Below, piece after piece: positions 7,324 to 33,421 of a DNA stretch of 64,000 bases. Every line of letters starts with the position of its first letter. Within the stretch, counting starts at the first letter, position 1. The notes under the pieces were generated by a model that was not told the DNA's origin, searched no databases, and saw nothing but the letters and a program-made list of their open reading frames with translations. The translations under genes were made by a program, and so were the position numbers. Source of the DNA: Patescibacteria group bacterium (GTDB lineage Bacteria; Patescibacteriota; Microgenomatia; Levybacterales; UBA12049); assembly GCA_038064195.1 (NCBI GenBank), contig JBBTTO010000003.1, forward strand, positions 114,428 to 178,427, in the 5' to 3' direction.

Positions 7324-7373
7324 TTTAGAATTCATAATTCAGAGTTCAGAATTTAATTCAAAGTTCGAGAATT
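7324..7373. repeat. AGAATT/CAGAAT-type repeat, left inverted repeat flanking the four-helix-bundle gene
   Basis: TTTAGAATTCATAATTCAGAGTTCAGAATTTAATTC...GAGAATT; its reverse complement matches 7741-7771 (shared AATTCATAATTCAGA). Confidence 0.6.
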
Positions 7374-7742
7374 ATTTTTTGTGTTAAGAATAATTGTTGA
7401 AAGTAGTTTTTTAATTTGATCACATTCATCCGAAGCTCTCTCTATTTCTTGCTGCATATTCTTATTGATTTCTTTTAAGAGAGCGAGCCAATAAAGAGTT
7501 TCTGAAGCAGACTTCAAAGCGATATTGAAGAAGTTTAGGAATTCTTTTTTTGAGGTACTGTTCCCACCTTCTACGACATTTGCGCCAATTGATGTCCCTG
7601 AACGGATAAGCTGGTCAAGTAGTGGCCAATTTGTTCTATTACTTCTAAGATTTTCCGACAAGGCAAGTATAACTAGAGAAAAAGAAAAGCAACGTTTTTT
7701 AAATTCTTGTTTGAACGTATTTTGCTTATTTGGCTCTCCCAT
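7353..7742 (-). CDS. four-helix-bundle protein (23S rRNA intervening-sequence protein family)
   Basis: GANVVEG core and overall pattern of the S23 ribosomal/IVS four-helix-bundle family; the start codon abuts the right IR. Confidence 0.8.
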   Translation of the reverse strand: MGEPNKQNTFKQEFKKRCFSFSLVILALSENLRSNRTNWPLLDQLIRSGTSIGANVVEGGNSTSKKEFLNFFNIALKSASETLYWLALLKEINKNMQQEIERASDECDQIKKLLSTIILNTKNNSRTLN

Positions 7743-7771
7743 TCTGAATTCTAAAATCTGAATTATGAATT
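7741..7771. repeat. right inverted repeat partner of 7324-7373
   Basis: ATTCTGAATTCTAAAATCTGAATTATGAATTA. Confidence 0.6.
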
Positions 7772-7774
7772 AGT

Positions 7775-10627
7775 CTACGGCGCAACCTCCTGCCAGATGA
7801 AGTTGGGGACACGCAGGAATTCAGGCGCGTTGAGGATCATATCCGGTCGTTCACGAATCGTGAATGACGGGAAGTTGATATTGTCAGTACACAGGTCACG
7901 TGAGTTGATAAAGTTACCACCACTTCCTCCTGCGTTGACAACTATAGCCCCTTGAACATTGAGTTGTTTGTCAGGGATCGGACTCGGACTTGCCGAGCAG
8001 TCAGCTGTAGCAGGATTGGTACTTGAGCCACTCGGTACACTGAAATTTTGGTCAGCGCTGAAAAAGCCTTCTAAATTACCACTGCCTATGACAGGTCCCG
8101 GACAGGCAGCAGTCCTACCCAGGCTCGGGTCAACTGTTATTGACCCTGAGACCGAGTAAAAGACAGTTGAAGTCGTCGGGACACTTAACGTGCCTTTCAA
8201 GGTCAGATCGCCATTGACGAGTATGATGATATCCCGATTAGCGCTTGCTGTAAAGTTGTTAAGAGTAACTGAGCTATTAGCTTGATAGATACCATTTGAC
8301 AAGCCTCCGGGAAGAGTACAGTTATTGAGGTTGCTACATACTGTCGTGAGATTAGTGGGCGTGATATTGGACTGCTTCATAATTGACTGCAAGTAGCCGT
8401 AGGATGTCTGGATGAGCGTACCGTTACTCGGAACAAATGTCTCAGGATAGGCAGCTCCACCGACCAGCCAGCCATTTGAGGAGACGTTTCCCTGCCAGAA
8501 GTTCGCGGGCGCGGCGCCTGTGAAGGCGACACCGGGTGTTGAAGATGACCCGGGAAGCATGGCATAAGCACCTGTACAGGAGGCATCAGGGCTTGGAGGT
8601 ACAGGATTACTGATTCCTGTGTCAAAGCGGACATCCAGACCATACGCCTGCCACCAGGGAAGTCCTCTTTTTATCGCGAAATTGAGATTTTCCAGATTAT
8701 TGTTATTGCAATTTCCTCCGGGTGAGGGAGTAGCTTCTGCACAGCTTGAGCCGACTGGCGCTATAAATGAGGCGGGCGGTCCGTTACGCGGGTGATTCAT
8801 GATGTAGCCTGTTGGCAGGCTCGGGTAACGGACTGTGTATTGACCTGAGATAAGTCCAGTCAGCGTATAGCTGCCATCTGGGTTATTGGTAATAAGCGGG
8901 TTAGGCGCGCCTCCAGGATAGTTAGACATCAGAATACCGGGACTAGCTGCGAAGTTCGTCTCTGATCCGTTTTTCCTCTGACTGTCATCGCTGTCCACAA
9001 AGACATTACCCGAGATTTGGTATTTGCCGAAGAACTTCAGATCCCGTTGATGCGCGTCACCGGCAGTAATCGTTAGCGGCCGGGGATAGGTGGGGAGAGA
9101 GACATAGTCAGTCCCGGGATCGGCGGTGAGGAGGAAGTCTCCCGGTTCGATAGCTGTGATGAGGAAGTCGCCGTTGGCATCAGATCTGTCAGAGCGGGAT
9201 TGCTGGGTGCCTTGGGGAACCGCGTGGACGACGACGCTTGCAAGCGGCATATCTTTAGCGCTGTTAAAGTCCCCGCTACTCATTGAGCTGCTGCTTTTGT
9301 CAGCGTCAACATAGATTTTCCCAGCGATAGTATAGACGCGGTTGATCCCGATGTCAGCTGTCCAGCCGTTTTGGGTTGAGTTAAGAGGTATCGTGATAGT
9401 ACGGGTATTATCATTGTTAGGATAGGCTTTGTAGTCTACAGGTACTGTCAGCGTGACAGTATAATTTCCGCGCTTTTTATTAGGGAAGGAGTATCGTCCG
9501 GTCGCGTCAGTTGTCGTCGTGCCGCCTTCACCTGCTGGCCCTGTCAGGGTGACTGTTGCTCCCGAGTAGCCTGTGGTTTCAGTAGGATCTTTCGTGCCGT
9601 CTCGATTGTCATCGATGAAGATATAGCCTGAGAGGTCGTAAGTCGGGATAGCCGCGAAGCGGATACGGGTATTAGGGCCGAGGGTTGTCGTACGGGGATT
9701 GGTATTGACGGTACGCCAGGAGTTACTCGAGAAAGTAAGTGCATAGTCACCGCCCGCGCGGTAATCGAAGTCATAGTCTCCGTTGGAGTTGGTCGTATGT
9801 GAGCCGATTGATACTCCGTTACGCGTCGCGGATATTCTTACTCCGGCGACCATCGGTTCACCCGTGTCGCACTGAGCGTCTTCATTTTGACTCCAGCAGA
9901 CAGAGCCGTAGAGATGAGCATAGACATCATAGGTAGTAGAGCCGACATTATTCGCGTCGCTGTGTTCGGCGAGATTGTTGCCATAATCAGCGTAAACCCT
10001 CAGAGTATACGTGTCTGCTTCGTTTTGCGTAAAGGTTTGGTTATTAAAAGTCGTATAGTTACTGCCCCCAGTCCATGACATATAGTCTATAGATGTAATA
10101 GGGAAGTTAGCTCCTGAACTAAATTGCATCGTAGGCGTGCCGTTATTGTAGGCTGTTGAGTCTTTAAATACCGCATGCCCGGCCCAGCAGCAAGTCCATT
10201 CATCCCCAATGTTATTAATTGTTGCTCTGATAGCAATATCTTGACCTGTTATAAAATATCCGGCACTCGGATTTGCTCCGGTCGACGTTCTCGCATCGAC
10301 CTGTGTGACCGTGAAGTCTGGATAGGTAGGTACGGGAGTTGGAGTTGGCAGAGGCCCCCCACCCCCACCAGGGCAAGCAGCGGGTTGACAACAATAACCA
10401 ACAATATCCCCGGGGGTTGCCTGGCACGTAATAGTATAACTTGGTTGATTTGGACAAAATGGCAAACGTGTACACAAGGCGTTGTCCATACATCCTGCTT
10501 GACCATCACATGCAGGCACTATTGCAGCTTGAGTTTGATAGAAACTAAATAAAGAGAAAAGTCCGATAATAGAGCCCACAAAAATAAGCCCGTTAAATAA
10601 GAAAAATCTTGATAAGTAGTGTTTCAT
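7775..10627 (-). CDS. large (950 aa) secreted/surface protein, N-terminal TM/signal anchor, Cys-rich module, Gly/Pro linker, Ser/Thr/Asn-rich beta-repeat domains
   Basis: N-terminal hydrophobic segment, PGGGGGPLPTPTPVP linker, SdrD/Cna-B-like repeats (GDYxxT, DxDxDG motifs). Confidence 0.65.
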   Translation of the reverse strand: MKHYLSRFFLFNGLIFVGSIIGLFSLFSFYQTQAAIVPACDGQAGCMDNALCTRLPFCPNQPSYTITCQATPGDIVGYCCQPAACPGGGGGPLPTPTPVPTYPDFTVTQVDARTSTGANPSAGYFITGQDIAIRATINNIGDEWTCCWAGHAVFKDSTAYNNGTPTMQFSSGANFPITSIDYMSWTGGSNYTTFNNQTFTQNEADTYTLRVYADYGNNLAEHSDANNVGSTTYDVYAHLYGSVCWSQNEDAQCDTGEPMVAGVRISATRNGVSIGSHTTNSNGDYDFDYRAGGDYALTFSSNSWRTVNTNPRTTTLGPNTRIRFAAIPTYDLSGYIFIDDNRDGTKDPTETTGYSGATVTLTGPAGEGGTTTTDATGRYSFPNKKRGNYTVTLTVPVDYKAYPNNDNTRTITIPLNSTQNGWTADIGINRVYTIAGKIYVDADKSSSSMSSGDFNSAKDMPLASVVVHAVPQGTQQSRSDRSDANGDFLITAIEPGDFLLTADPGTDYVSLPTYPRPLTITAGDAHQRDLKFFGKYQISGNVFVDSDDSQRKNGSETNFAASPGILMSNYPGGAPNPLITNNPDGSYTLTGLISGQYTVRYPSLPTGYIMNHPRNGPPASFIAPVGSSCAEATPSPGGNCNNNNLENLNFAIKRGLPWWQAYGLDVRFDTGISNPVPPSPDASCTGAYAMLPGSSSTPGVAFTGAAPANFWQGNVSSNGWLVGGAAYPETFVPSNGTLIQTSYGYLQSIMKQSNITPTNLTTVCSNLNNCTLPGGLSNGIYQANSSVTLNNFTASANRDIIILVNGDLTLKGTLSVPTTSTVFYSVSGSITVDPSLGRTAACPGPVIGSGNLEGFFSADQNFSVPSGSSTNPATADCSASPSPIPDKQLNVQGAIVVNAGGSGGNFINSRDLCTDNINFPSFTIRERPDMILNAPEFLRVPNFIWQEVAP

Positions 10628-11196
10628 TAGTTTGTAAGAGTAATAGTGAAGGGATTATTTTCTGGTTTTTCACCGTATCCCCAAAAAAGAGATTTAAATC
10701 CATCCCTAGGAGGAGGCGAATGATTTACATTTTGCAGGGTTGCTATTATTCCGGCTGGAATCGAAACTCTCAAGCCATTTATATATTTTTTATCTTTTAC
10801 TTCGTCTGGGTCTATATATATTAGGATTTTTACATCATTATTTCCCACTTTCGAGATCAAACTAAAGTTAGTAATAGGTATTGGATTGTCTGCACTTTTA
10901 ATTGTTCGATATGTATTGAGGGGTCTAATTTTGTTAGTTGTCTCAAGTGTGATTTTAGATATTTTAGGTGTTTTAGGGTCTGACTTGATTGCTTCTTTAT
11001 TCCAATCTTTCAATTTTCTCTCAAATTCAGGCGAGCTTTTGTATTGAATAGTATAGTTCTTACTGGTATTTTTGATATTTATAAAATTGTTACTCTTAAC
11101 TACAAAGAAAAGTAAAAAAAGATTGATTATTAGTAAAGATACGAGGATGCTGATTAAAATAATATTATTAACTTTCATTTTAGCAAAAAGATGCAC
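10627..11196 (-). CDS. hypothetical membrane-anchored protein
   Basis: N-terminal TM helix ILISILVSLLIINLFLLFFVV. Confidence 0.5.
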   Translation of the reverse strand: MHLFAKMKVNNIILISILVSLLIINLFLLFFVVKSNNFINIKNTSKNYTIQYKSSPEFERKLKDWNKEAIKSDPKTPKISKITLETTNKIRPLNTYRTIKSADNPIPITNFSLISKVGNNDVKILIYIDPDEVKDKKYINGLRVSIPAGIIATLQNVNHSPPPRDGFKSLFWGYGEKPENNPFTITLTN

Positions 11197-11240
11197 TCTC
11201 CTTAAGTGTATAAATCAGTATTTGTAAAGTCAAGAAAACT

Positions 11241-11736
11241 CTTTACATATTTCTTATAGAGATATACTATATGTAAAGTATCTACTTCGAGTAGGAATAA
11301 TTTGCTCTACTATATTCATCATGAGAAAGAATTTTAAAGAACTATTGCTGCATTACAGCTTAGATTGTATACCGCCCATACGGCGGCGATAGTCTTATGA
11401 AAAAGAGACAGCAGCCTATTATTTCCTCTTCTTCTCCCTCTCTGCTCTCTCTTTTTTCTTTTTTCTCCTCATCTTTATCGGCAGGTATTCCCCGCCTAAT
11501 TCCCGATTTTAGCCTCAGCGAGCATCCCATAGGCTTGACATTAGACCTATAATATGTTAACATTTGAAGCTTAGCACCTTAAAAAGCTAGCTTTCGTAGG
11601 AAGTTATTCGACCAGCAGCCTCTGTTTGATTATGTATATTGTTTCTCAATTGCGAGATGATAATTTATATAGTCTTCAGATTGTCTCCTGTTCGGATCGT
11701 CTTTCTACGAATTACTTGACAATTTTTGCTCTGATC
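11241..11736. repeat. left arm of ~0.5-kb imperfect terminal inverted repeat
   Basis: The core 11371-11736 aligns in inverted orientation with 14504-14871 (e.g. ACCGCCCATACGGCGGCGATAGTCTTATGAAAAAGAGACAGCAGCC vs revcomp ACCGCCGATACGGAGGCGATAGTCTTATGAAAAAGAGACAGCAGCC). The outer part 11241-11278 matches the revcomp of 14967-14998. Confidence 0.85.
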
Positions 11737-11848
11737 TCCGATGTTAGATCGGTGGCTTTGTGCTCATAAAAGTGGGTACAAAGCTACCGGTCAACGTACC
11801 TGCCTTACCGGTAGCATGTCTTTGGACTTTTTGTTCGAATAACGCCCG

Positions 11849-12640
11849 GTGACGGGCAAGGAGACTTCGATGAACCGCCGTAACCTTTTCTCGATCGTTT
11901 TCTCGTTCGTTTTCACGTTGTCGTTGTTTGGTTCGGCACTGGCCGATGACCCCAAGGTGGCGCCCGTAGTGGCGACTCCGGAACAGGTCACCTTGACGAC
12001 GAAGACTCTCGCCGAGTGGGCGACCCTCGTGAGCGATCACGATCCGGCCGCGCTCGACATGATGTCGAAGAAGGCCGTCAAGGCCCTCTTCGGCACCGAC
12101 GACTCCGCGACGCTCGTGCAGTACCTAGCGATCAAGTTCGAGACCCAGATCTATCCCGTCGATGATGGGACGGTCACAGTCCCGAGCGAAGGGCAATTCG
12201 CTGCGACCGTGTCCTTTCGTGGGTTTTACACCGCGATGGGGTACTACACGGTGAAGCTTCGCTTGGTGGATAACGGTGGGGAGTTCCTCACCATCGACTC
12301 GGCGAAGCTCAGCTCTCCGGTGTTTCCGGAGGGCACGAAGCCGACCACGATCAAGCTCACCATCGCGCCGGATGTTCCGGCGGTGCTCTCTACCAATGGA
12401 CTGGATGTGTCGGACTTCGTCGTCCTAAGCATTGTGAGCACCGATGTTCAGACCCACGTCATCACCCTGGTCAAGCCGGGCAAGAGCCCGCTCGACCCAG
12501 CCAACTGGCTTGGCATGGCGATCATTAATCCCGAGAAGAAGGGGAAGATGGGTCTCGCCGGCCTTCCGGCTGGCACGTACGACGTGATCGACAGCACCAT
12601 GGCCGCCGACATCCTCGTTGGCCAGATTACCGTCAAGTAA
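11849..12640 (+). CDS. secreted hypothetical protein (GC-rich cargo gene)
   Basis: Signal peptide MNRRNLFSIVFSFVFTLSLFGSALA; GC content clearly above surroundings. Confidence 0.6.
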   Translation: MTGKETSMNRRNLFSIVFSFVFTLSLFGSALADDPKVAPVVATPEQVTLTTKTLAEWATLVSDHDPAALDMMSKKAVKALFGTDDSATLVQYLAIKFETQIYPVDDGTVTVPSEGQFAATVSFRGFYTAMGYYTVKLRLVDNGGEFLTIDSAKLSSPVFPEGTKPTTIKLTIAPDVPAVLSTNGLDVSDFVVLSIVSTDVQTHVITLVKPGKSPLDPANWLGMAIINPEKKGKMGLAGLPAGTYDVIDSTMAADILVGQITVK

Positions 12641-12751
12641 TTCAATTCACCGCAAAGTGCGGTACAAGAAGGACGAACCCCCACCGAATCCCGGTGGGGG
12701 GCGTTCTCCTCTCCTTAAAAAGTGAAGAGAGAAGAACGCCAACCATAGGTA

Positions 12752-14503: not shown

Positions 14504-14998
14504 GATCAGAAGACAAAAATTTGAAGTAACTCGTAGGAAGACGATCCGAACAGGAGACACCCAGACGTTCATACAATTTGTCACCTCGCAATTGAGAGAC
14601 TTTTTATACGAACAAGCTGAGGCTGCTGGTCGAATAACTTCCTACGAAATATTAACTTGTAAATGAGCGAACCCGTGTATCCTAATCTATTATAGGACAG
14701 CTGTCAAGGTTATGAGACATCACAAGCTCCGGAGTTAGAAAATATGAAAGGGAGCCTGAGGCTAAGCGGATTAGTGAAGAGAAAAAAGAGAGAGCAGTGG
14801 AGAGAGAAAAGTAAAAAAATAGTGGCTGCTGTCTCTTTTTCATAAGACTATCGCCTCCGTATCGGCGGTATGTGATTCAGCCAGTAATGCAGTCTGAGCT
14901 GATTAGAATTAATTCTCATATGATTATAGTTGAGCCAAACGTTCTCAAAAGCTTTTTCTATTTCAAATATAGTATATCTTTATAAGAAATATGTAAAG
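14504..14998. repeat. right arm of ~0.5-kb imperfect terminal inverted repeat
   Basis: See the left arm; contains the polypurine complement (GAAGAGAAAAAAGAGAGAGCAGTGGAGAGAGAAAAG) of the left-arm CT tract. Confidence 0.85.
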
Positions 14999-15377
14999 AT
15001 TTAATTAAAAGGATGAGTAGGCTGAGATATAAATACGCGAAAATTACGTATATCATGTAAGAATTTAGGAAGAAAGATAATTATAGAAAAATAGCAGAGG
15101 GAGGATATAGTCTGTAAAGATGTTGAAGAAGCGATATTGCCCTGACCTTGATTATAAGCAGTAGGTAAATATCCCGATTATGGTTGATGTGAATAAAGAT
15201 AAATGATTGAGGATTGAGGAATAATTGCATTCCCGCATTGTTGTATTGTCTTCATGTATTAGCCTTGCTTTCATGTTGAAAGTTGCAATAATCAGATTAT
15301 GGATGAGAGGCAGGAGCTTGACATCGTCTAGTCTCAGTGCTATAGCAGGCTAGCACTAGATAATTTCAAAACTGTAT

Positions 15378-17674: not shown

Positions 17675-18589
17675 ATGCGTAACGTAACACTTGAAGAATT
17701 ATTGGAGGCCGGTGCTCATTTCGGGCATCAGGTAACTCGCCAAAACCCCAAAGCTCGGGACTATGTCTTTGAAGCTCGCGACAATATCCATATTATTGAT
17801 TTAGCCAAGACCAAAGAAGGCTTAGACGAAGCCGCTGCTTTTGTTAAGTCACTGGCTGCTAAAGGTGGAACTATGATTGTTCTTGGTGCTAAGCGTCAGG
17901 CAGAGCCGGTCGTTCGCGAACAAGCCAAAAGAGTTCAGGAAGCAGGTATCGACGGATTGTATTTTGTCAGCAATCGCTGGATCGGCGGCATACTCACCAA
18001 TTTTCCGGAGGTCAGTAAGAACTTCAAACGCCTCAAGGATCTGGGTAAATTTATGGATACTCCCTCTGAAAAGGCCCGTTTTACCAAAAAGGAAGTTTCG
18101 CTCATGGAAAAATCTCGTCAAAAGCTAGATAGTTTTTATTGGGGGGTGGCTGACATGACTCATATTCCTGATGCTGTTTTTATCATTGATACTCATTTGG
18201 AAGATTTGGCAGTCCGTGAAGCTATCGCGACTAAAGTCAAAACAGTCGGTATCACCGATACGAATGCCGACCCGACGATTATTGATTATCCGATCCCGGC
18301 TAACGATGATGCTGTGGGATCTGTACAGTTGATAGTTGCGCATATCATTGATGCGTGGATTGAAGGTCGTTCTGCACAGCAGAATGCAGAAGGCGGAGAG
18401 GTAAAGGGGACAAAAGAGACAAAAGCTCCAGTAAAAAAGGATAAAGAGGCTGAGAAGATCGTCGAAGCTGCCGAAAATGTCGATGACAAAATGGAAAAAA
18501 CAGTTGAAGCGGAAAAAGATCTGAAAGCGGTTGAAACTCCAGGCAAGGCTCCGGTGAAAAAAACTACCAAGAAAGCAAAAGCAGCATAG
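17675..18589 (+). CDS. rpsB: 30S ribosomal protein S2 with Lys/Ala-rich C-terminal extension
   Basis: LLEAGAHFGHQ...signature; conserved order rpsB-tsf. Confidence 0.95.
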   Translation: MRNVTLEELLEAGAHFGHQVTRQNPKARDYVFEARDNIHIIDLAKTKEGLDEAAAFVKSLAAKGGTMIVLGAKRQAEPVVREQAKRVQEAGIDGLYFVSNRWIGGILTNFPEVSKNFKRLKDLGKFMDTPSEKARFTKKEVSLMEKSRQKLDSFYWGVADMTHIPDAVFIIDTHLEDLAVREAIATKVKTVGITDTNADPTIIDYPIPANDDAVGSVQLIVAHIIDAWIEGRSAQQNAEGGEVKGTKETKAPVKKDKEAEKIVEAAENVDDKMEKTVEAEKDLKAVETPGKAPVKKTTKKAKAA

Positions 18590-18614
18590 CGCTAAGCGCT
18601 TTGCTCAAAGCGAG
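18585..18614. repeat. GCGC-family palindromic repeat at rpsB/tsf junction
   Basis: CATAGCGCTAAGCGCTTTGCTCAAAGCGAG; overlaps the rpsB stop. Confidence 0.6.
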
Positions 18615-18621
18615 AACAAAT

Positions 18622-19673: not shown

Positions 19674-19690
19674 CCAAAAGTTCTCGGAAG

Positions 19691-19714
19691 GCGCGTAGCG
19701 GTTAGCGCAAAGCG
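19691..19714. repeat. GCGC-family repeat 5' of frameshifted four-helix-bundle gene
   Basis: GCGCGTAGCGGTTAGCGCAAAGCG. Confidence 0.55.
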
Positions 19715-19715
19715 T

Positions 19716-20077
19716 ATGGCATTTCGATTTGAAGAATTAGAAATATGGCAACTAGCAATAGCCTATACAAATAGCATTTATCTAATTTGTAAAACATTCC
19801 CCAAAGAAGAACTTTTTTCCTTACAGGACCAACTGAAAAGATGTGCTGCTTCTATTGCCGCCAATATTGCCGAAGGATCTGGCGCCAGCTCGAGAAAGAC
19901 TTTTGTCATTACCTTGATATTTCAATTAAGTCAGTCTACGAATCCGTTTCTCATTTGTATATTGCTAAACAACAAGGTTACATCAATGAAGAACAATTAG
20001 CAAAACTTTATGAAGATGCCGATAAGCTCTCTCGTAAGATACGTTCATTTAAGGCTTCCTTATTAAGGAACGCTTAG
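19716..20077 (+). pseudogene. four-helix-bundle (IVS-family) gene interrupted by a frameshift
   Basis: 19716-19910 encodes ...IAANIAEGSGASSRK. The family sequence continues in the next frame (DFCHYLDISIKS...LAKLYEDADKLSRKIRSF, 19841-20077). The shift lies around 19893-19900 (AGAAAGACTTTTG). Confidence 0.6.
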
Positions 20078-20103
20078 CGCTATGCCCTTTGCGCTTGGCG
20101 AGC
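20071..20103. repeat. GCGC-family repeat 3' of frameshifted four-helix-bundle gene
   Basis: CGCTTAGCGCTATGCCCTTTGCGCTTGGCGAGC. Confidence 0.55.
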
Positions 20104-20124: not shown

Positions 20125-21306
20125 ATGCTACTTACCGCGCTTGTTTTTTTACTCATCCTTTCGGTTCTGGTCCTCATTCATGAACTCGGGCATTTCTTAG
20201 TTGCCAAAAAATTAAATATCAAAGTTGAGGAGTTCGGTTTTGGTCTGCCGCCGCGTGTTTTTGGTATCAAACGGGGAGAGACAATCTATTCAATTAACTG
20301 GCTGCCGATTGGTGGCTTTGTCAAATTATACGGAGAAGATGACGCAGGCGCAGGTAAGGTTAGCGCAAAGCGCATAGCGCAAAGCGAGAAACCGAAAGCT
20401 CTTGCGAGAGCTTTCTATGCCAGGCCGGTCGGTCAGCGGGCAGCAGTAGTTGTCGCCGGTGTGGTCATGAATACACTGTTGGCTATTGTGATTTTTTACA
20501 TTTTTATGGGGGTCTCAGGTTTTCGAGCACAGCTGCCTCTTCTAAAAGACCATATATTTTACTTTGCGAATACAAGTATTAAGACTGATATTTTGATAAG
20601 TCAAGTTCAAAAAGATTCTCCTGCAGCTAAAATAGGTCTTCCTCAATATGCACAAATCGTGTCGTTAAATACTATCAAGCCCAGTACTCCTGAAGAATTC
20701 ACTTCAATCATTAAGAAAAGTCAGGGGAAGGAGCTTAGTATTACCTGGATTGATCCGAACACCCATAAAAAAACGACCAAGTCCGCAGTCCCGCGTGTCA
20801 ATCCGCCAAAGGGTCAAGGGGCTTTGGGGGTGAGCCTTTTTGGGGCAAGATCAGCCATACTGAATTATGAGACGCCAGTCCAAAAAGTTTTCTCTGGTAT
20901 CACTCATCCGATCAATCTCCTGCTGTACAATTTTGATTTGATCGGCAGTTTGATCAAGTCAGCAGTTAGGGATCATAACGCAACGGCTTTAGGTGAGGGA
21001 GTGGCAGGGCCGGTCGGGATCTATTCACTTGTCGGGACCATCGTACAGATCCCTAATATCAAAGAACGAACGCTCGAGCTTTTGAATTTGGCGGGAATTT
21101 TGTCTATTTCGTTGGCTTTCTTTAATGTCCTACCAATCCCGGCACTCGATGGGGGAAGACTCTTCTTTATCCTCATCGAAGGAGTCACCAGACGAAAAGT
21201 AAATCCCAAATATGAAACTTTAGCCCACACCATCGGTATGGCAGTTTTACTGCTGCTTATTGTGCTGATTACCTTTAAAGACATTTTTCAATTTGTGATT
21301 AAATAA
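20125..21306 (+). CDS. rseP: RIP metalloprotease RseP (site-2 protease, M50)
   Basis: HELGHF zinc motif, PDZ region, C-terminal LDGG. Confidence 0.85.
   Translation: MLLTALVFLLILSVLVLIHELGHFLVAKKLNIKVEEFGFGLPPRVFGIKRGETIYSINWLPIGGFVKLYGEDDAGAGKVSAKRIAQSEKPKALARAFYARPVGQRAAVVVAGVVMNTLLAIVIFYIFMGVSGFRAQLPLLKDHIFYFANTSIKTDILISQVQKDSPAAKIGLPQYAQIVSLNTIKPSTPEEFTSIIKKSQGKELSITWIDPNTHKKTTKSAVPRVNPPKGQGALGVSLFGARSAILNYETPVQKVFSGITHPINLLLYNFDLIGSLIKSAVRDHNATALGEGVAGPVGIYSLVGTIVQIPNIKERTLELLNLAGILSISLAFFNVLPIPALDGGRLFFILIEGVTRRKVNPKYETLAHTIGMAVLLLLIVLITFKDIFQFVIK
20358..20388. repeat. GCGC-family repeat inserted in-frame in rseP
   Basis: GGTTAGCGCAAAGCGCATAGCGCAAAGCGAG encodes VSAKRIAQSEK. Confidence 0.65.
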
Positions 21307-25685: not shown

Positions 25686-25690
25686 GTAAT

Positions 25691-26656
25691 ATGCAAATAG
25701 GATTTATCGGACTTGGCAAAATGGGCACTCGGATGGTATTTAAGCTTCTTGAAGGGGGACATGAGGTTGTGGTTTGGAATAGATCAACGGAGCCGATAAA
25801 AGATTTAGAATTTAGAATTCAGGATTCAGAATCGGAGAAATATTTTAAGACTGCTAATACAATTAAGGATTTGATTTCTCAATTAGATAAGCCTCGAATT
25901 ATTTGGTCTATGCTGCCGGCAGGAGGGGTGACTGAGTCGGCTCTTAAAGAAATTGCAAATTATGTTGAAAAGGGAGATATCGTCGTCGACGGGGGCAATG
26001 CGTTTTATAAAGACACGCAAAGACGTAGCGAAGAGCTTAGCGCAAAGGGCATAGCGTTTTTAGGTATAGGAGTTAGCGGTGGAATCAAGGCTGTCGATAA
26101 AGGATATCCCTTGATGGTAGGGGGAGACAAGTCGGCATTTGAGGAAATAAAACCGATCCTTGAAACGCTTATTAAGCCGGACGGGCCAGCCTCGACTAGC
26201 GCGAGTCTAGGCGGGGGGTATGAGTATTTTGGGACAGGCGGAGCCGGGCATTTCGTAAAAATGGTCCATAACGGTATCGAGTACGGCATGATGCAAGCAA
26301 TTGGTGAAGGATATGGCGTCCTTGAGAAAGCGCCATATGAAATAGATCTGGTAAAAGTCAGTCAGCTCTGGCAAAAAAATACGATAGTCACGAGTTATCT
26401 TAATGAGTGTGCGAAAGATGCATTGGAGAAAGACCCGACTCTGTCAGGTCTTGACGGTGTCATCGATGCCACCGGGGAAGCAGAGTGGACGGTCAACCAA
26501 GCCCGCGAAGAAGGAGTCTATGCTGAGAATATCGACCAGTCACTTGATTTTCGCAGGCGTTCAAAAACTGATAAAAATGTTAGCTCTTCTTTTGCTGCGC
26601 GGATGGTCGCAGCTCTGCGCCGCGAATTCGGCGGCCACGCCGTGAAGAAAAAATAA
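25691..26656 (+). CDS. gnd: 6-phosphogluconate dehydrogenase (short, decarboxylating-type/YqeC-like)
   Basis: IGLGKMG...VWNRS NAD-binding N-terminus and 6PGD C-domain; carries two in-frame repeat insertions. Confidence 0.8.
   Translation: MQIGFIGLGKMGTRMVFKLLEGGHEVVVWNRSTEPIKDLEFRIQDSESEKYFKTANTIKDLISQLDKPRIIWSMLPAGGVTESALKEIANYVEKGDIVVDGGNAFYKDTQRRSEELSAKGIAFLGIGVSGGIKAVDKGYPLMVGGDKSAFEEIKPILETLIKPDGPASTSASLGGGYEYFGTGGAGHFVKMVHNGIEYGMMQAIGEGYGVLEKAPYEIDLVKVSQLWQKNTIVTSYLNECAKDALEKDPTLSGLDGVIDATGEAEWTVNQAREEGVYAENIDQSLDFRRRSKTDKNVSSSFAARMVAALRREFGGHAVKKK
25801..25834. repeat. AGAATT-type repeat inserted in-frame in gnd
   Basis: AGATTTAGAATTTAGAATTCAGGATTCAGAATCG encodes KDLEFRIQDSES in an otherwise conserved region. 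Confidence 0.6.
26022..26056. repeat. GCGCTAAGCGC-family palindromic repeat inserted in-frame in gnd
   Basis: GACGTAGCGAAGAGCTTAGCGCAAAGGGCATAGCG. Confidence 0.6.
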
Positions 26657-26685
26657 GGATAACATGCCACAATTAGTGGGGGAAT

Positions 26686-27483
26686 ATGGATATGTATAAA
26701 GTAATAATTTCTGACTTTGATGGTACTCTTGTAGGAGTAAATTATAAACTGTCCAAAAAGCTCAAGCATGCAGTTAGTGAATGGTTACGCGCGGGTAAGT
26801 TTTTTTCAGTTGCAACAGGGAAAGCATTCGTTCCAATGTTAACAAACGCCTTAGAAGAGCTGAATATAACATCGCCGATTATCATTAACGGAGGTGCCGA
26901 GATAATTAGTTGGAGATCAAAGGAGATCTTATTTTCTGCATATATAACTCCTGATATTGCGCAAGCGATTTGTAATCTGTTAACTCAACATAACTATCCT
27001 TTTGTCGTGGTTAAGACCGATAAAGTATATTCGTTTTCTAAGGAGAATGACCTGCATAAAGAAGATATTAGCTTTAGAGATTTATCTAAACTAGCTAATT
27101 ATCACAATATTTCTAAGATTAGAATAACCACTACAGATTTGCAAGAAGATATAGTAGAAAATTTTGTTAAGCAGGAAATAACAGATGTATATCCGACAAT
27201 TAACGTAGTCCGAGGTTATACTCCTTCATCAAAGGGTTATGATATAACGTCAGTGAACGCGACGAAGCAATTAGCTATGATTAAACTCTTTGAGTTATTA
27301 AAAATTGATCGCAGTGAAGTAATTGGAATTGGAGACGGATTCAATGATTATTCTTTGTTAACCGCGTGTGGATATAAGGTGGCGTTGGAGAATGCACCAG
27401 AAGATTTGAAGTCGATAGCGGACTATATAGCACCTTCTGCTGATAAGGACGGTGTAGCAGATGTTATTTACAAGCATATTTGA
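26686..27483 (+). CDS. Cof-type HAD phosphatase
   Basis: DFDGTL, GDGFND motifs. Confidence 0.75.
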   Translation: MDMYKVIISDFDGTLVGVNYKLSKKLKHAVSEWLRAGKFFSVATGKAFVPMLTNALEELNITSPIIINGGAEIISWRSKEILFSAYITPDIAQAICNLLTQHNYPFVVVKTDKVYSFSKENDLHKEDISFRDLSKLANYHNISKIRITTTDLQEDIVENFVKQEITDVYPTINVVRGYTPSSKGYDITSVNATKQLAMIKLFELLKIDRSEVIGIGDGFNDYSLLTACGYKVALENAPEDLKSIADYIAPSADKDGVADVIYKHI

Positions 27484-27527
27484 GTAGCTAGGCAGTAAGA
27501 TGTTCTAGTGCTATACTAGGTACGATT

Positions 27528-28754: not shown

Positions 28755-28847
28755 TTTTATTCAGGGTTTTTCCACAGGGGACTACTTCTAACAAGGGTCG
28801 TATTTCGGAATCTGATGGGATCCTGAAACAAGTTCAGGATGACTTCG

Positions 28848-29459
28848 TCATTTAGGCAAAGGGAGCAGGGACATAACGTCCACTTGGAAGACCACAATCC
28901 AGACTATTGTATAGATCAAAATCCCGACAGGAACTCCCACAATCAGTAATAGCTTCTTTTTACCTCCCGGTTTTTTCTCGCCTGTCGACTTGGCTTTCGT
29001 ATCGCCATTATTTACAACTCCATAGGTAGTTGTTGAGGGTGTCACGGCCGGTGCTTTGACAATGGGGGTATTAGGATCAATTGTCGGAAGGGGTGTGGCG
29101 TATTTGGCAGCGAGCGCAGCATAGTCGACAGTCGGTTTCATACCCGATGGTTGAGCAGCTGGATTCGGAGGTGGAAGAGGCGGAGCCGCAAGTACTGCGC
29201 CATTAGTTTTGGGTGTCACTGGCGCAGTAGCTACCTGCTCCGACGGGTCAAGGCGGGCCGGTGGGGGCGCGGGCGTTAGTCCCGGTTGACTTGGAAGAGG
29301 TGTGGGTGGTAGAGGCGATAGCCCACCCAGGTCTGGTTGAGCAGCTGGACTTGGAAGTGGTGGAGGGGTAGTCGCTTTGGCACCTGTTGTCGTACCCATG
29401 ACACGGTCATAGACTTCTTTTAATTTGGGATCAAGATTGGCAGTGTTTTTAGGATCCAT
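28848..29459 (-). CDS. Pro-rich tail-anchored membrane protein
   Basis: Low-complexity P/A/T-rich N-terminal region and a C-terminal TM helix. Confidence 0.45.
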   Translation of the reverse strand: MDPKNTANLDPKLKEVYDRVMGTTTGAKATTPPPLPSPAAQPDLGGLSPLPPTPLPSQPGLTPAPPPARLDPSEQVATAPVTPKTNGAVLAAPPLPPPNPAAQPSGMKPTVDYAALAAKYATPLPTIDPNTPIVKAPAVTPSTTTYGVVNNGDTKAKSTGEKKPGGKKKLLLIVGVPVGILIYTIVWIVVFQVDVMSLLPLPK

Positions 29460-29623
29460 TTGTTCAGTAGTTAGTTATTAGTGTTTAGAAGTTAGTTAAA
29501 CACTGATTTAATGATCGGGGATTTGTTAGTATTTGTCAAGTAAAACACATTGCTACATTGTTTGATTGTTAAATTGTTTTATAGCAATTGAACAATAGTT
29601 TTTCTTCGGCTATACTTAGCTTT

Positions 29624-30526
29624 ATGAAAATAATCGTTACCCACAATGCTCCTGACTGGGATGCTATCAGCTCAGTTTGGCTCATCAAGAGATATTTACC
29701 CGGTTGGCGGGATGCTATTGTCGAATTTGTTCCGGCAGGGACCAGACGAGCCAAGAGCCAAGAGCTAGGAGATATGATTGACCCGATTGAAATTGTCGGT
29801 GAGGATGAAGTCATCCATGTTGATACCGGACTTGGGCCGCTTGACCACCATCAGACAGCAGACAAAACAGTTTGTGGTGCAACTAAGACCTGGGACTATA
29901 TCCAAATGCAAATCACATTAGCAGGTGAGGAATTGAAAGCCGAACATGTCGAAGCTGTCTCACGAATAGTCGCTATTATTTTGGCGGATGATCATTTCAG
30001 AGAAGTGTTTTGGGCAGATCCGATGGCTGATTATCATGAATTCTCACTCATTGGTTTGCTTGAGGGCATCAAATTATCCCATCCTGATCAGGATAATTTT
30101 TATATGGATTTCGGGATGCAGTGTCTGGACGGAATGGTGCATACTTTTGAAAGTCGTATTTGGTCAGAAAAGGAAATTGCCGATAAAGGCATCAGTTTTC
30201 GCGTTAAGCGTGGCCGCGCCTTGGCCTTTGAGACGGTGAATGACGGTGTAATAAAACTCGCGCAAAAAATGGGCTATATCCTCGTCGTCCGAAAGGATCC
30301 GCGTAAAGGATATGTGCGGATCAAAGCCCGCCCTGCATCAGGCAAAGATGATGATCTCGATCTGACAGCAGCCTATGAAAAGCTGCAAGAGATCGACTCA
30401 AAGGCAACGTGGTTCCTGCACGTCTCCAAAAAAATGCTCCTGAACGGTACTCCTAAAAATCCTAAAATGGTACCCACTACTCTGACGCTTGAGCAGATTA
30501 TTGAAGTTTTAAAAAGTATTTACTAG
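29624..30526 (+). CDS. DHH-family phosphoesterase (NrnA-like)
   Basis: HNAPDWDAISS and GLGPLDHHQ motifs; start placed at MKIIVTH. Confidence 0.7.
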   Translation: MKIIVTHNAPDWDAISSVWLIKRYLPGWRDAIVEFVPAGTRRAKSQELGDMIDPIEIVGEDEVIHVDTGLGPLDHHQTADKTVCGATKTWDYIQMQITLAGEELKAEHVEAVSRIVAIILADDHFREVFWADPMADYHEFSLIGLLEGIKLSHPDQDNFYMDFGMQCLDGMVHTFESRIWSEKEIADKGISFRVKRGRALAFETVNDGVIKLAQKMGYILVVRKDPRKGYVRIKARPASGKDDDLDLTAAYEKLQEIDSKATWFLHVSKKMLLNGTPKNPKMVPTTLTLEQIIEVLKSIY

Positions 30527-30612
30527 CAAAGCGCGTAGCGGATAGCGCTAGGCGTTGTTTTTATTTCAAGATCTTGAAACCCTTGGCTCTTTGCGCTATG
30601 CTCTAAGCGATT
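30526..30612. repeat. composite GCGC-family repeat pair flanking palindrome TTTCAAGATCTTGAAA
   Basis: GCAAAGCGCGTAGCGGATAGCGCTAGGCG ... CTCTTTGCGCTATGCTCTAAGCGATT. Confidence 0.6.
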
Positions 30613-30615
30613 ACT

Positions 30616-30948
30616 ATGAATGATTGTATTTTTTGCAGAATTGCGAGGAAGGAAATTCCTAAAGAATTTACCTACGAGGATGAGGATATTATGGTTTTTC
30701 CTGATATCAATCCTGTCAAACCGATTCATCTCCTGATCATCCCCAAAAAACATATTCCGGAACTCCACGCTCTTGATAATCCGGCTCTTTTTGAGAAGAT
30801 AGGCTCTGTTATCCTCCGGATGATTGTGAAGATGGAGCTACAAAATAAAGGGTACCGAGTCGTCATCAATGGCGGAGGGGCACAGCTGGTCGATCATCTC
30901 CATATCCACCTCATGGGCCCCATCGCCAAAACCGCCAGTCTCGGCTAG
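30616..30948 (+). CDS. HIT-family hydrolase
   Basis: HLHIHLMG histidine triad. Confidence 0.8.
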   Translation: MNDCIFCRIARKEIPKEFTYEDEDIMVFPDINPVKPIHLLIIPKKHIPELHALDNPALFEKIGSVILRMIVKMELQNKGYRVVINGGGAQLVDHLHIHLMGPIAKTASLG

Positions 30949-30959
30949 TGAGAGTCTAG

Positions 30960-31152
30960 GCGGGCTTCTCTTTAGGCTTCAGGTTTACATGTCTTCGCTT
31001 TTGATGTAAAATAGAGCCCTACGGAATGTAGATCCGCAAAAGGTTAGCAAGGGGGCTTGCCACTCCGAAGCCCGACTCAAAGCTTGGGATAAGGAATTTA
31101 AGGTGAACCCTCCTTCGTTAAAACTTCGGCGGGCGAAGGGTGGTGTTTTTTT
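30960..31152 (+). promoter_or_regulatory. structured leader / possible small RNA upstream of rpsU
   Basis: Several hairpins ending in CCTTCG...CGAAGG plus a T7 run; the GGGTGG purine tract that could serve as the rpsU RBS lies inside the last stem. Confidence 0.3.
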
Positions 31153-31335
31153 ATGGTATTTGTTAAGAAACAACCGGGTGACACAGATGATGCGATTATT
31201 CGCAAGTTCTCGCGTAAAGTAATTGATGCGGGGATTGTGAATGAGGCCAAGCGTCGACAATTTTATCTCAAACCTTCTCTTGCCAAAAAATTAAAGGCTG
31301 AAGAGTCTCGCCGCGCGAGGAAGAAGATCATTTAA
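31153..31335 (+). CDS. rpsU: 30S ribosomal protein S21
   Basis: 60 aa, basic; S21 signature ...FYLKPS...RARKK. Confidence 0.85.
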   Translation: MVFVKKQPGDTDDAIIRKFSRKVIDAGIVNEAKRRQFYLKPSLAKKLKAEESRRARKKII

Positions 31336-31337
31336 TT

Positions 31338-31411
31338 GCATAGCGCTTAGCGCAAAAGGGCCAAGCGTTCCATTTTAACTTTACGCTACGCGCTTACCGC
31401 TATCCGCTTGC
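31338..31411. repeat. GCGC-family palindromic repeat pair
   Basis: GCATAGCGCTTAGCGCAAAAGGGCCAAGCG ... CGCTACGCGCTTACCGCTATCCGCTTGC. Confidence 0.6.
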
Positions 31412-31418
31412 CCGAATT

Positions 31419-31802
31419 ATGGCTGACGTTAAAATTTTCACCTTTGTTGAAAGCCGCTATCAGGTCAATCGAAAAAAAATCAGGGATGTTATTCATGAAG
31501 TGCTCGACACCAAAGGCATAACGAGTAAATGTGAAGTATCGCTGGCTTTTGTCGGGGATCGTAAGATGCATGGTCTGAATTTGAAATTTCGTAATTTGGA
31601 TAAAACGACTAACATTTTGTCCTTCCCTTTGAGCGAAGGCCAACAAACCCCTCTTCCCGCATCGGTCATGCGTCTTGGAGATATCGTCATATCCTATCCG
31701 CAAATCATAAAAGAGGCAGCTCGGGATGAGATGATGGTTGATGATAAGATCAATCAACTCGTCGAGCATGGACTGCTGCACTTACTTGGAGAACACCACT
31801 AA
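31419..31802 (+). CDS. ybeY: rRNA maturation endoribonuclease YbeY
   Basis: HGLLHLLG(E)HH zinc motif. Confidence 0.85.
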   Translation: MADVKIFTFVESRYQVNRKKIRDVIHEVLDTKGITSKCEVSLAFVGDRKMHGLNLKFRNLDKTTNILSFPLSEGQQTPLPASVMRLGDIVISYPQIIKEAARDEMMVDDKINQLVEHGLLHLLGEHH

Positions 31803-31814
31803 TACGGTATCTCG

Positions 31815-31870
31815 CCTAGCGCATAGGGCAAAGCGAAATAACGCTTGGCGCTTACCGCTTTGCGCTAAGC
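31815..31870. repeat. GCGC-family palindromic repeat
   Basis: CCTAGCGCATAGGGCAAAGCG...CGCTTGGCGCTTACCGCTTTGCGCTAAGC. Confidence 0.6.
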
Positions 31871-31876
31871 AACTAT

Positions 31877-33421
31877 ATGGTTTATTACAGAACGTATCGA
31901 CCGCAAAAAATAAGTGATTTGGATAGTGAAGCTGTCCGTCGCAAACTTTTTTCTGTTCTTCAGGTAGCAGCGCCTACCTTTTTACAAATCCCGCATGCTT
32001 TTCTTTTTACCGGACCTAAAGGTCTGGGCAAGACCTCAACAGCTCGTATTGTGGCGAAAGTAATAAATTGCACGGGTAGAACGCATAGCGCTAAGCGCTT
32101 AGCGCAAAGCGATTCCATTGAGCCATGCAACGAATGTCAGCAATGTGTATCGATTACGAATGGCACAAATTTGGATGTCTTTGAGATTGATGCCGCGTCA
32201 AATCGGGGAATTGATGAGATACGTGATTTAAAAGAAAAAATTCGTCTGAGTCCGGTATCTGCCCAAAAAAAAGTCTATATCATTGATGAAGTGCATATGC
32301 TGACAACTGAAGCATTTAACGCGCTTCTGAAAACGCTTGAGGAGCCGCCAAGCCATGCTGTTTTTATCCTGTGCACGACTGAAGCGCATAAAGTCCCCGC
32401 GACAATTCTCTCGCGCTGTCTTCATATCGGATTTAAAAGGGCGACAGATGATGAGTTGGTGAGGGCATTACAGCGAATTGTTAAAGGGGAAGGATTAAAG
32501 ATAGATGAGCAGACGCTTCATGAAATTGCTAAGCTGGCAGACGGAGGTTTTAGAGACGGGACAAAAATTCTTGAAGAACTGGTGGCACTCTCAGATGGAA
32601 AAGATATCAATGCAGCGCTTTTGGAAAAGGGTTACCAGGTCACGTCAATGAACCAAAGTATCCGGGAGCTGATTGATGCGTGTGCAGAAAAAAATCTGCA
32701 GGCAAGCATTGCCGTTGTCAGTAAAGCGACGGACGCGGGAACTGACATGAGCTATCTCCTTTCGGAGTTGATTGAAGCGTTGCATACTCTTTTGCTCTCG
32801 CGGGTAGGTGTGGGAGAAGCGTTGTTTGTTGCGGAACTGGAGATTGAGGACCTGAGGGAGTTACTGGCTCTTTTAACAAAGGCTGCCGGTGAAATGAAAT
32901 ATACGGTCGTGCCGTCATTACCGCTTGAGTTGGCTCTGGTGAGCTGGTGCAGCGGGGCACAAGAATTAAGAATTAAGAATGAAGAATTAAGAATAGAAAA
33001 AAAAGAAACCGTGGGAAAAGAGGGGGTGACGGTGGCTTCGATGAGAAGAGAGGCAGGTAATATAGCAAAGCTTAAAGCTGTTAATGGTGAGGAACAGGAT
33101 GTAAAAGAAAAAGCAGTCAAAGGTGATCCGTCTGAGGTAAGCATACTCAACTATGCAGCAAGGGGGGATCATTCACAGGAATGGATTGATGCATTGTGGA
33201 AAAATATTATTATTGAGATAAAAAGCCACAATCATATGATAGCGGGAGTATTACGTTCGTGCCGAATTGTAAGCTACGATCGTAAAGTCCTGACTATTGA
33301 GGCGGCAGCCTCCTTTCACAAAGAGAAATTGGTCGAGCCCAAGACCTTTGCCGCGCTACTGGCAGTATGCGAGAAGTTAATTGGTAATCCGATTGAGGTT
33401 TCAATTACATTGAAACAGTAG
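31877..33421 (+). CDS. dnaX: DNA polymerase III subunit gamma/tau
   Basis: GPKGLGKTS Walker A, CNECQQC zinc module, SRC motif; carries two in-frame repeat insertions. Confidence 0.9.
   Translation: MVYYRTYRPQKISDLDSEAVRRKLFSVLQVAAPTFLQIPHAFLFTGPKGLGKTSTARIVAKVINCTGRTHSAKRLAQSDSIEPCNECQQCVSITNGTNLDVFEIDAASNRGIDEIRDLKEKIRLSPVSAQKKVYIIDEVHMLTTEAFNALLKTLEEPPSHAVFILCTTEAHKVPATILSRCLHIGFKRATDDELVRALQRIVKGEGLKIDEQTLHEIAKLADGGFRDGTKILEELVALSDGKDINAALLEKGYQVTSMNQSIRELIDACAEKNLQASIAVVSKATDAGTDMSYLLSELIEALHTLLLSRVGVGEALFVAELEIEDLRELLALLTKAAGEMKYTVVPSLPLELALVSWCSGAQELRIKNEELRIEKKETVGKEGVTVASMRREAGNIAKLKAVNGEEQDVKEKAVKGDPSEVSILNYAARGDHSQEWIDALWKNIIIEIKSHNHMIAGVLRSCRIVSYDRKVLTIEAAASFHKEKLVEPKTFAALLAVCEKLIGNPIEVSITLKQ
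32083..32111. repeat. GCGC-family repeat inserted in-frame in dnaX (between Walker A and Zn module)
   Basis: GCATAGCGCTAAGCGCTTAGCGCAAAGCG encodes HSAKRLAQSD. Confidence 0.65.
32961..32996. repeat. AGAATT-type repeat inserted in-frame in dnaX
   Basis: AAGAATTAAGAATTAAGAATGAAGAATTAAGAATAG encodes QELRIKNEELRIE. Confidence 0.6.

Follow-up and report, generated by a model that had tools for sequence, protein, structure and literature searches.

A stretch of 64,000 nt (contig JBBTTO010000003.1, positions 114,428 to 178,427; called the window below) from a groundwater Patescibacteria genome of ~1.08 Mb (candidate phyla radiation, CPR; closest relatives annotated as Levybacteria and Microgenomates) was analysed. 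Two four-helix-bundle genes were located in it, each enclosed between two inverted arrays of tandem 7-nt units; the gene with its two arrays, the arms, is referred to as a cassette. Arrays of this kind were also found as hairpins without an open reading frame (ORF) in the spacers between genes, and as single arrays inside coding sequences.

Two four-helix-bundle genes and their arms

Cassette 1 stands between the gene of serine hydroxymethyltransferase (SHMT) and that of a 950-aa surface protein. The product of gene 1 was scored above the cut-offs of PF05635 (E 1.3e-22; 80.4 bits, cut-off 33.8) and TIGR02436 (94.7 bits, curated cut-off 24) and belongs to this family, which is named the "23S rRNA intervening-sequence protein" family, alias the S23 ribosomal protein family. 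The model of the protein (AlphaFold, monomer; predicted local distance difference test, pLDDT, 92.9) was a four-helix bundle with helices at residues 3–31, 35–59, 64–91 and 93–122. Foldseek of this model gave 2rld as the best match (E 1.8e-6; template modelling score, TM, 0.76–0.91), followed by 2gsc (TM 0.64–0.80) and, more distantly, by Avd of diversity-generating retroelements (DGR; 8ub7_E and 4dwl, TM 0.66–0.79); 2rld, a protein of the S23 ribosomal protein family, was also found by phmmer against the PDB (E 9e-18). A homopentameric ring is known for Xcc0516 and Avd.

As the preliminary description of this DNA had it, gene 1 is tightly bracketed by inverted repeats and the right one lies at the start codon: segments 7329–7353 and 7747–7771 are 92% complementary over 25 nt, and the longer spans 7320–7352 and 7741–7773 are 79% complementary over 33 nt; the two sides share the 15-mer AATTCATAATTCAGA, inverted with respect to each other. 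On the right, the array and the start codon (CAT, 7740–7742) overlap. The left array extends from the stop codon (7353–7355) into the last six codons, and its inner end codes for the last six residues. In both the minimum free energy (MFE) and the centroid fold the two ends are paired into a stem of ~25 bp around the ORF. The same cassette was found between the same two genes in two further genomes (L003 and L012) and is regarded as an old resident, not a recent arrival, because of this synteny. DNA of seven other assemblies with gene 1 was identical to the window over the covered parts (up to 17.7 kb) in six cases; in the seventh, 1 mismatch in 9,942 bases was seen. One assembly spans the first 17.7 kb of the window and is identical throughout; strain-level variation in array copy number was therefore not to be seen in this set.

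Gene 2 was split by a 1-nt frameshift near 19900–19910, in an A-rich run (GAGAAAGAC), into ORFs 19716–20000 and 19841–20077; the split could mark a pseudogene or an assembly error, and the gene is an apparent pseudogene. The repaired protein scored 111.6 bits against TIGR02436, above the cut-off. As in cassette 1, the MFE and centroid folds of cassette 2 enclose the ORF with a ~25-bp stem formed by its two ends. It had been asked earlier whether other four-helix-bundle genes carry the flanking repeats of gene 1: in the window, gene 2 is indeed framed by inverted heptamer arrays, but the unit is another one, WWAGCGC. Gene 2 is bracketed by inverted WWAGCGC arrays and gene 1 by YAGAATT arrays, so that each of these two repeat families frames its own four-helix-bundle gene; the two "families" are one phenomenon.

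The frr-rseP spacer that holds cassette 2 was compared in related genomes. In L088 the two arms are kept and the ORF is missing. In L090 (1121–1605) an intact homologue of gene 2 (64% identity) stands in the spacer in the orientation opposite to frr and rseP, an arrangement consistent with inversion between the inverted arms. Cassettes in the sense orientation were found at this spacer in L070 and in L146 (frr alone found beside the gene).

Arrays and hairpins across the window

With thresholds that were arbitrary and identical for all periods, 18 arrays of period 7 were counted in the window, compared with 0.13 expected from local shuffles (~100-fold enriched). Periods 3–6, 10, 11 and 13 gave 0–1 arrays, periods 8, 9, 12 and 15 gave 1–2, and period 14 (twice 7) gave 8; no period-7 array was found in a 50-kb stretch of E. 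coli. The sequence AGAATTNAGAATTNAGAATT (≤3 mismatches) had 11 matches at 5 sites of the window versus 0.23 expected, and 0 of 100 shuffles reached 11, so that the possibility left open earlier, of a motif merely frequent in AT-rich sequence, was refuted. The GC-rich unit WWAGCGC had 51 matches at 13 sites versus 0.32 expected. The units are diverse (YAGAATT, WWAGCGC, GTATTAG, AAATTTT, TGGTCAG, AAAATTC and others). Two regularities among them were considered and rejected: regional clustering of one unit family (3 adjacent same-family pairs versus ~1.9 expected, hand count) was not significant, and a common "AG" core (14 of 19 units versus ~52% expected, hand count) was weak.

All eight arrays inside genes of the window are purine-rich on the sense strand. 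The arrays flanking gene 1 and those in gnd and dnaX had been taken for one motif type, and gnd and dnaX for carriers of both repeat families; the arrays were found to be of one unit family, and each of the two genes does hold matches to both families. The arrays of gnd and dnaX are present where described and code for the residues given earlier. The claim that the gnd array adds 12 residues was wrong, because its residues align without gaps to close orthologues, which are equal in number there; compared with 6vpb, the closest homologue of solved structure, Gnd has just 4 residues more at this place. In L088 a related ARAATTC array begins at the same codon of gnd. It is a GC-rich 12-aa insert at 26183–26215 (GPASTSASLGGG), and not the heptamer array, that accounts for the 10 aa by which this Gnd exceeds the usual length of 311 aa; this insert occurs in some close Gnd orthologues and is absent from others, and the loop that holds it is also variable among solved homologues. 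The WWAGCGC match in gnd (26032–26056) codes for the conserved ELSAKGIA, leaves the length unchanged and occurs also in L088.

In dnaX residues were added, as had been stated. Relative to the closest orthologue (L179/P0242; DnaX 86–88% identity), site 2 has a net gain of 21 nt (3 units, 7 aa), and site 1 a net gain of 15 nt, with ~18 nt of older sequence overwritten by the array; other DnaX orthologues carry different insertions, or 7-aa-periodic peptides, at both sites. The arrays change in steps of 7 nt, and within genes the gain at site 2 of dnaX amounts to three units (21 nt). The in-frame insertion by repeats proposed for both genes is thus upheld in dnaX, where both arrays are net gains, but not in gnd, where neither the array nor the WWAGCGC match changes the length. 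In rseP, at the same codon and with equal length, an AGCGCAA array of the window is replaced in L088 (4385–4417) by an unrelated AAAATTA array; the position was kept and the sequence was not. In recR (35497–36111) an array of the AAAATTC type was observed at 35982–36017, within the Toprim domain, where 96 residues are aligned to 83 model positions; this protein of DNA repair has probably gained an array in frame as well.

The ORF-less hairpins of the window comprise four of WWAGCGC and two of other units. Over 15–31 nt, identities of ~80–100% were found among the arms of the cassettes, those of the hairpins, and the arrays within rseP and dnaX. In the syntenic Levybacteria relative (L088/L089) only 1 WWAGCGC site was found in 36 kb, versus 13 in the 64-kb window. 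The spacer before the HIT gene measures 9 nt in L088 versus 89 nt with the hairpin in the window, and the S21-ybeY spacer 15 nt versus 84 nt; L179 has a hairpin of different units before the HIT gene. All four comparable junctions of L179 carry hairpins of similar length with differing units (AATAGTA/AAATGGT in place of WWAGCGC of the window; TTAGCGT in place of GTATTAG). No target-site duplication was visible at the borders of the hairpins and cassettes examined. In sum, the positions are long-lived, while their sequences become uniform inside one genome and give way to others from genome to genome, and ORFs can be inverted or lost. The comparison shows that arms and hairpins form lineage-specific families, whose members appear, disappear, change orientation, lose the ORF and are homogenised anew among related genomes.

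The mobility suggested earlier for the four-helix-bundle cassette was borne out in part. Cassette 1 itself occupies one and the same site in three genomes, whereas cassettes related to it were found in many other genomic contexts, the frr-rseP cassette was inverted in L090 and lost its ORF in L088, and hairpins are present or absent from genome to genome. The features are collected in Table 1.

Table 1. Genes, arms, hairpins and in-gene arrays of the window (ordered by position), and array units at plasmid loci of other bacteria. TRF, Tandem Repeats Finder.
Feature	Position	Strand	Remarks
Cassette 1, 3' arm	7320–7373	(−)	reverse-complement array from the stop codon; TRF period 7, 4.4 copies
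Four-helix-bundle gene 1	7353–7742	(−)	129 aa; PF05635 / TIGR02436 profile matches
Cassette 1, 5' arm	7741–7773	(−)	YAGAATT array (sense strand) reaching into the start codon; TRF period 7, 4.4 copies; inverted repeat with 7320–7356
WWAGCGC hairpin, small	18587–18621	(+)	fills rpsB-tsf spacer; 69-nt ATTCAGA-type hairpin at this junction in L088
Cassette 2, 5' arm	19686–19716	(+)	WWAGCGS units, GCGCGTAGCGGTTAGCGCAAAGCG; pairs with 20066–20102
Four-helix-bundle gene 2	19716–20077	(+)	between frr and rseP; found by phmmer scan of window ORFs with gene 1 (E 5e-5)
Cassette 2, 3' arm	20066–20102	(+)	WWAGCGC family; pairs with the 5' arm in MFE and centroid folds
rseP WWAGCGC array	20358–20392	(+)	matches the reverse-complemented 3' arm of cassette 2 at 23/25 positions
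gnd YAGAATT array	25795–25834	(+)	TRF 25803–25832, period 7, 4.3 copies; codes KDLEFRIQDSES
WWAGCGC hairpin	30527–30615	(+)	inverted arms fill the spacer between the 312-aa ORF (29588–30526) and the HIT gene
WWAGCGC hairpin	31335–31418	(+)	fills S21-ybeY spacer
WWAGCGC hairpin	31806–31876	(+)	fills ybeY-dnaX spacer
dnaX site 1, WWAGCGC array	32078–32113	(+)	loop between the Cys pairs of the zinc module
dnaX site 2, AAGAATT array	32956–33002	(+)	linker; TRF 32961–32994, period 7, 4.9 copies; codes QELRIKNEELRIE
GTATTAG / reverse complement hairpin, ORF-less	33418–33500	(+)	between dnaX and ybaB
AAATTTT-type hairpin, ORF-less	39516–39630	(+)	abuts the cysS start codon
Plasmid loci, Nostoc edaphicum			units on the two sides GGGAGTA / TCCCTAC
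Plasmid loci, N. punctiforme			unit CAGGAGT
Plasmid loci, Riemerella			units on the two sides GGTTTAA / AACCTTG
Plasmid loci, Azospirillum			units on the two sides CAGAGGA / TCCTCTG

Further arrays of the window were recorded beside these. The most regular of all is a perfect TGGTCAG array (47999–48063; 7.6 copies, 100% matches), located between the divergent ORFs 47224–47946 (−) and 48146–48535 (+); it folds on itself (dG −24.2, z −5.9), and its unit is one which we take to be one base off the cyanobacterial STRR2 unit (STRR, short tandemly repeated repetitive sequence). The arrays at 36232–36269 and 39592–39629 run precisely up to the start codons of ORF 36273–36824 and of cysS (39627–41105), like the TAACTGA repeats before start codons of Beggiatoaceae. 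Among the few tandem arrays of a period other than 7 is one of period 8 (TAACAATT, 3.9 copies; 5644–5674) within the DHFR ORF (5342–5881).

Framing at homologous loci

Homologous loci (~150) were examined in two sets, retrieved by similarity to the two query proteins; start codons were predicted and are approximate. Set 1 consisted of 80 loci with relatives of gene 1 from species-representative genomes (Patescibacteria, Chitinophagaceae and other Bacteroidota, Ignavibacteriota, Chloroflexota, Omnitrophota), 77 of which were assessed for arrays; set 2 consisted of 80 metagenome loci with relatives of gene 2, the second subfamily, 69 of which were assessed. In set 1 the layout could already be recognised by eye. 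By a strict threshold, a period-7 array was found in this set within 45 nt upstream of the gene at 48/77 loci, downstream at 55/77 and on both sides at 37/77; other periods gave 0–2, and the background of period-7 arrays amounts to 0.6% of bases. The corresponding counts for set 2 were 29/69, 38/69 and 18/69. Inverted framing was seen in Patescibacteria, Bacteroidota, Chloroflexota, cyanobacteria and Alphaproteobacteria. Plasmids of cultured Nostoc, Riemerella and Azospirillum have it as well (Table 1).

At a given gene the two flanking units agree as reverse complements (0–1 mismatch in 23/27 and 17/19 loci), whereas between loci the mismatches were 1.9 and 3.3, with 19 different units in 19 loci. 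The duplex between the two flanks of one locus had an energy of −19.5 kcal/mol, compared with −14.6 for flanks of different loci and −10.9 for shuffled flanks. On the sense strand the upstream arm is purine-rich (34/34 and 31/41 loci) and the downstream arm pyrimidine-rich (47/50 and 22/26 loci). The upstream neighbour was on the same strand in 66 of 72 loci (p = 4e-5 against a baseline of 0.72), and the median gap to it, 36 nt, is the array itself.

At the loci examined, genes of the four-helix-bundle family were the only cargo seen between arms. Its insertion sites lie within operons of various kinds. On plasmids pANA02 of Anabaena sp. 90 (L176) and pNe_5 of Nostoc edaphicum (L172), four-helix-bundle genes were noted between cas6 and cas4 and, in antisense orientation, between the genes of the two subunits of ribonucleotide reductase. 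The narrow PF05635/TIGR02436 profile is matched at E ≤ 0.001 by 10,868 clusters at 50% identity; no Avd relative was found in the phage collection or in viral contigs.

Interpretation and relation to known systems

The reading preferred on balance, which we hold to be probable though by no means settled, is that of a cassette of the intervening-sequence (IVS) type with ORF-less hairpin derivatives that resemble those of REPIN or MITE elements (REPIN, hairpin made of two inverted repetitive extragenic palindromes, REPs; MITE, miniature inverted-repeat transposable element), both belonging to a genome-wide system of tandem 7-nt arrays. Its core unit is a PF05635/TIGR02436 gene placed directly behind a host gene of the same strand, with a purine-rich heptamer array running up to the start codon and the reverse complement of this array following the stop codon; by pairing, the two arms can enclose the ORF with a stem of ~25 bp, as in ORF-bearing IVS of 23S rRNA. 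The window holds two such cassettes, ORF-less hairpins of the same arms in spacers, and single arrays in permissive loops or linkers of housekeeping genes. The cassette would have no promoter of its own and would be transcribed by read-through from the upstream gene; the stem folded by the arms would be cut by RNase III, by analogy with rRNA IVS, so that the cassette would probably be excised and the passenger insulated from the host message. The four-helix-bundle protein, a relative of the nucleic-acid-binding Avd, may act on its own arrays. By analogy, arms and hairpins resemble a REPIN/MITE population in which the cassette would be the ORF-bearing member.

ORF-bearing IVS with a protein of the S23p family are known in 23S rRNA of Coxiella burnetii, Leptospira and Brucella, in helix 25 or 45. 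The IVS of Coxiella contains an S23p ORF, a 28-bp stem cut by RNase III and, within this stem, 3–4 heptameric repeats (GACAGAT) shortly before the start codon (PMC4990558); the window cassettes are read as IVS-type passengers because of this precedent. Common to both are the PF05635 protein and the location of the ORF inside terminal inverted repeats that pair around it (stem ~25–28 bp); transcription as part of a host RNA would be a further likeness. Unlike the rRNA elements, the window cassettes lie between protein-coding genes, their arms consist wholly of tandem heptamers, and ORF-less derivatives and in-gene arrays occur alongside.

In REPIN-RAYT systems (RAYT, REP-associated tyrosine transposase) one and the same repeat is scattered in intergenic hairpins and present, as inverted copies, on either side of a gene (PMC3116915, Bertels and Rainey 2011; PMC3337134). 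The window shares with them the flanked gene and a population of dispersed, lineage-specific hairpins of two inverted repeats at conserved orthologous positions. The flanked gene here codes, however, for a four-helix bundle and not for a Y1 (HUH) transposase of the IS200/IS605 type, and the arms consist of 7-nt units in tandem that vary in sequence, whereas REPs are one conserved palindrome of 20–40 nt.

Heptameric repeats were described decades ago in cyanobacteria as STRR (Calothrix/Anabaena) and are over-represented in many bacterial genomes; their origin, binding partner and function have not been established. Further examples are TAACTGA (Beggiatoaceae, cyanobacteria, Bacteroidetes; PMC4679880), GGGAATC (Xanthomonas) and GGGGAYT (Nostoc) (PMC4692102). 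Like these, the arrays of the window have period 7 and many unit variants, are mostly intergenic, often end at a start codon and, inside ORFs, occur only in the stop-codon-free orientation; the taxa rich in such repeats are also rich in four-helix-bundle genes. The published accounts of heptamer repeats that were examined make no mention of PF05635 or of inverted array pairing around it, and the literature search gave no general link of the family to heptamer arrays; the Coxiella IVS paper alone notes heptamers, beside one such ORF. IVS with S23p ORFs, REPIN-RAYT systems and heptamer repeats (STRR, TAACTGA, GGGAATC) are thus already known; the new element is the link of heptamer arrays to a gene family, in a cassette of IVS type outside rRNA with heptamer arms and hairpin derivatives.

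Avd binds nucleic acid and reverse transcriptase (PMC10053308). It is a homologous four-helix bundle (TM as given above), and gene 2 matched NCBIfam DivGenRetAVD at E 5e-5. The score against NF033474 was 23.5 bits versus a cut-off of 80, no reverse transcriptase was found among the window ORFs, and neither a template repeat nor a variable repeat of a DGR was found in the window.

Several observations weigh against the IVS-type reading. The folding energy of the whole element was unexceptional for cassette 1 (z −1.2) and for cassette 2 (z −0.45). Arm mismatches had no bias of G:U over A:C (56 versus 74, p = 0.14), and therefore give no positive sign of selected pairing in the sense RNA. On a given side only about half of the loci passed the stringent array threshold. 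The Rfam scan of the window returned one tRNA only, with no rRNA gene and no known RNA family matching the arrays, and the 48 window ORFs that were scanned included none for a transposase, RAYT, integrase, reverse transcriptase or RNase III. The synteny of cassette 1 in three genomes argues for slow turnover. The link between the arms of a gene and the dispersed arrays of the same genome comes from two genes in 64 kb; most of the related sequences are metagenome-assembled genomes, in which repeats may be mis-assembled. We know of no catalytic activity of a PF05635 protein.

A role of the protein like that of a RAYT is possible, though we lean against it. The protein would be a dedicated partner that binds its cognate arrays (as single-stranded DNA or RNA) and drives their copying or homogenisation with host replication and repair enzymes or a reverse transcriptase, and the hairpins would be the non-autonomous population. 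The architecture is the same as that by which REPs were first linked to RAYTs (PMC3116915, PMC3337134): both genes of the window are framed by their own family, each family is also dispersed, and the families are homogenised within a genome and different at orthologous sites between genomes. Four-helix-bundle genes were the sole cargo seen between arms, the fold is near that of DGR Avd, a nucleic-acid-binding cofactor of reverse transcriptase (PMC10053308), and a Nostoc preprint postulates a heptamer-repeat-binding protein, itself unidentified. The absence of any enzymatic activity known for the family speaks against such a role, as does the state of gene 2, which is frameshifted although its cognate WWAGCGC is the most abundant unit of the window. 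Arrays also occur far from such genes (5 arrays and no four-helix-bundle gene in 50 kb of Nostoc plasmid, the chromosome being outside this count), and the match of arms to dispersed arrays can be tested at two genes only.

Generalised, the same proposal makes PF05635 proteins the partners of bacterial heptanucleotide repeats: each would recognise its own family of 7-nt arrays and drive its copying and homogenisation, a transposase-free analogue of REPIN-RAYT. It is put forward tentatively, because of the analogy to the RAYT architecture, the exclusive cargo and the Avd-like fold. If true, it would account for the excess of heptamers among the long microsatellites of cyanobacteria, Beggiatoaceae, Xanthomonas, Bacteroidota and CPR bacteria, and for the origin of ORF-bearing 23S rRNA IVS as well. 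PF05635/TIGR02436 has, to our knowledge, no known function outside DGRs; a candidate partner for heptameric repeats would be at hand, and a genomic context for this large orphan family.

It appears rather unlikely that the arrays are chiefly cis-regulatory leaders, that is, elements of translation or transcript stability before start codons, with the 3' arm sequestering the 5' leader of one strongly regulated gene. Three window arrays (36232–36269, 39592–39629 and 7741–7772) do abut start codons, in subfamily 1 the array stands a median of 3 nt from the ATG, the TAACTGA heptamers of Beggiatoaceae end 1 nt before start codons (PMC4679880), and heptamers upstream of recF and recO of Nostoc affect expression (preprint). 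Leaders of this kind leave unexplained the matched inverted arrays on both sides of one gene family in many phyla, the arrays within coding sequences, and the gain, loss and replacement of families at orthologous spacers.

Still less credit is given to a classical transposon, MITE or REP, with arms serving as terminal inverted repeats for a transposase or RAYT encoded elsewhere and the four-helix-bundle gene as passive cargo. Arms that are wholly different between the cassettes of one genome and between loci fit a sequence-specific transposase poorly, and they are tandem repeats, not unique ends; target-site duplications were not visible at the junctions, no transposase was found among the 48 window ORFs scanned, and the cargo is of a single kind. 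The presence or absence of hairpins between genomes and the different contexts of related cassettes would be expected of such an element, and GTAG, by which many REPs are tagged, occurs in some of the arms. Microsatellite slippage or low complexity with coincidental adjacency, for which the G+C of the window (~0.40–0.52) and the AT-rich YAGAATT units might speak, has next to no probability and was ruled out by the shuffle controls and cross-locus statistics: period 7 alone is enriched, the GC-rich WWAGCGC behaves alike, and the association with the gene recurs in ~150 independent loci.

The preferred IVS-type reading suggests that the IVS of 23S rRNA is a special case of a far more general cassette. 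Small as this CPR genome is (1.08 Mb), the arrays in it give form to loops and linkers of proteins that are essential (DnaX, RseP, RecR, Gnd), and they take up the spacers of operons.

Two observations on other parts of the window are added. Segments of ~500 nt at 11236–11736 and 14504–15002, amid ORFs without a Pfam match, are 73% identical to each other. ORF 60103–61662 (−) codes for a bacterial type IB topoisomerase (domains Topoisom_I and Top1B_N_bact), an enzyme uncommon in bacteria.

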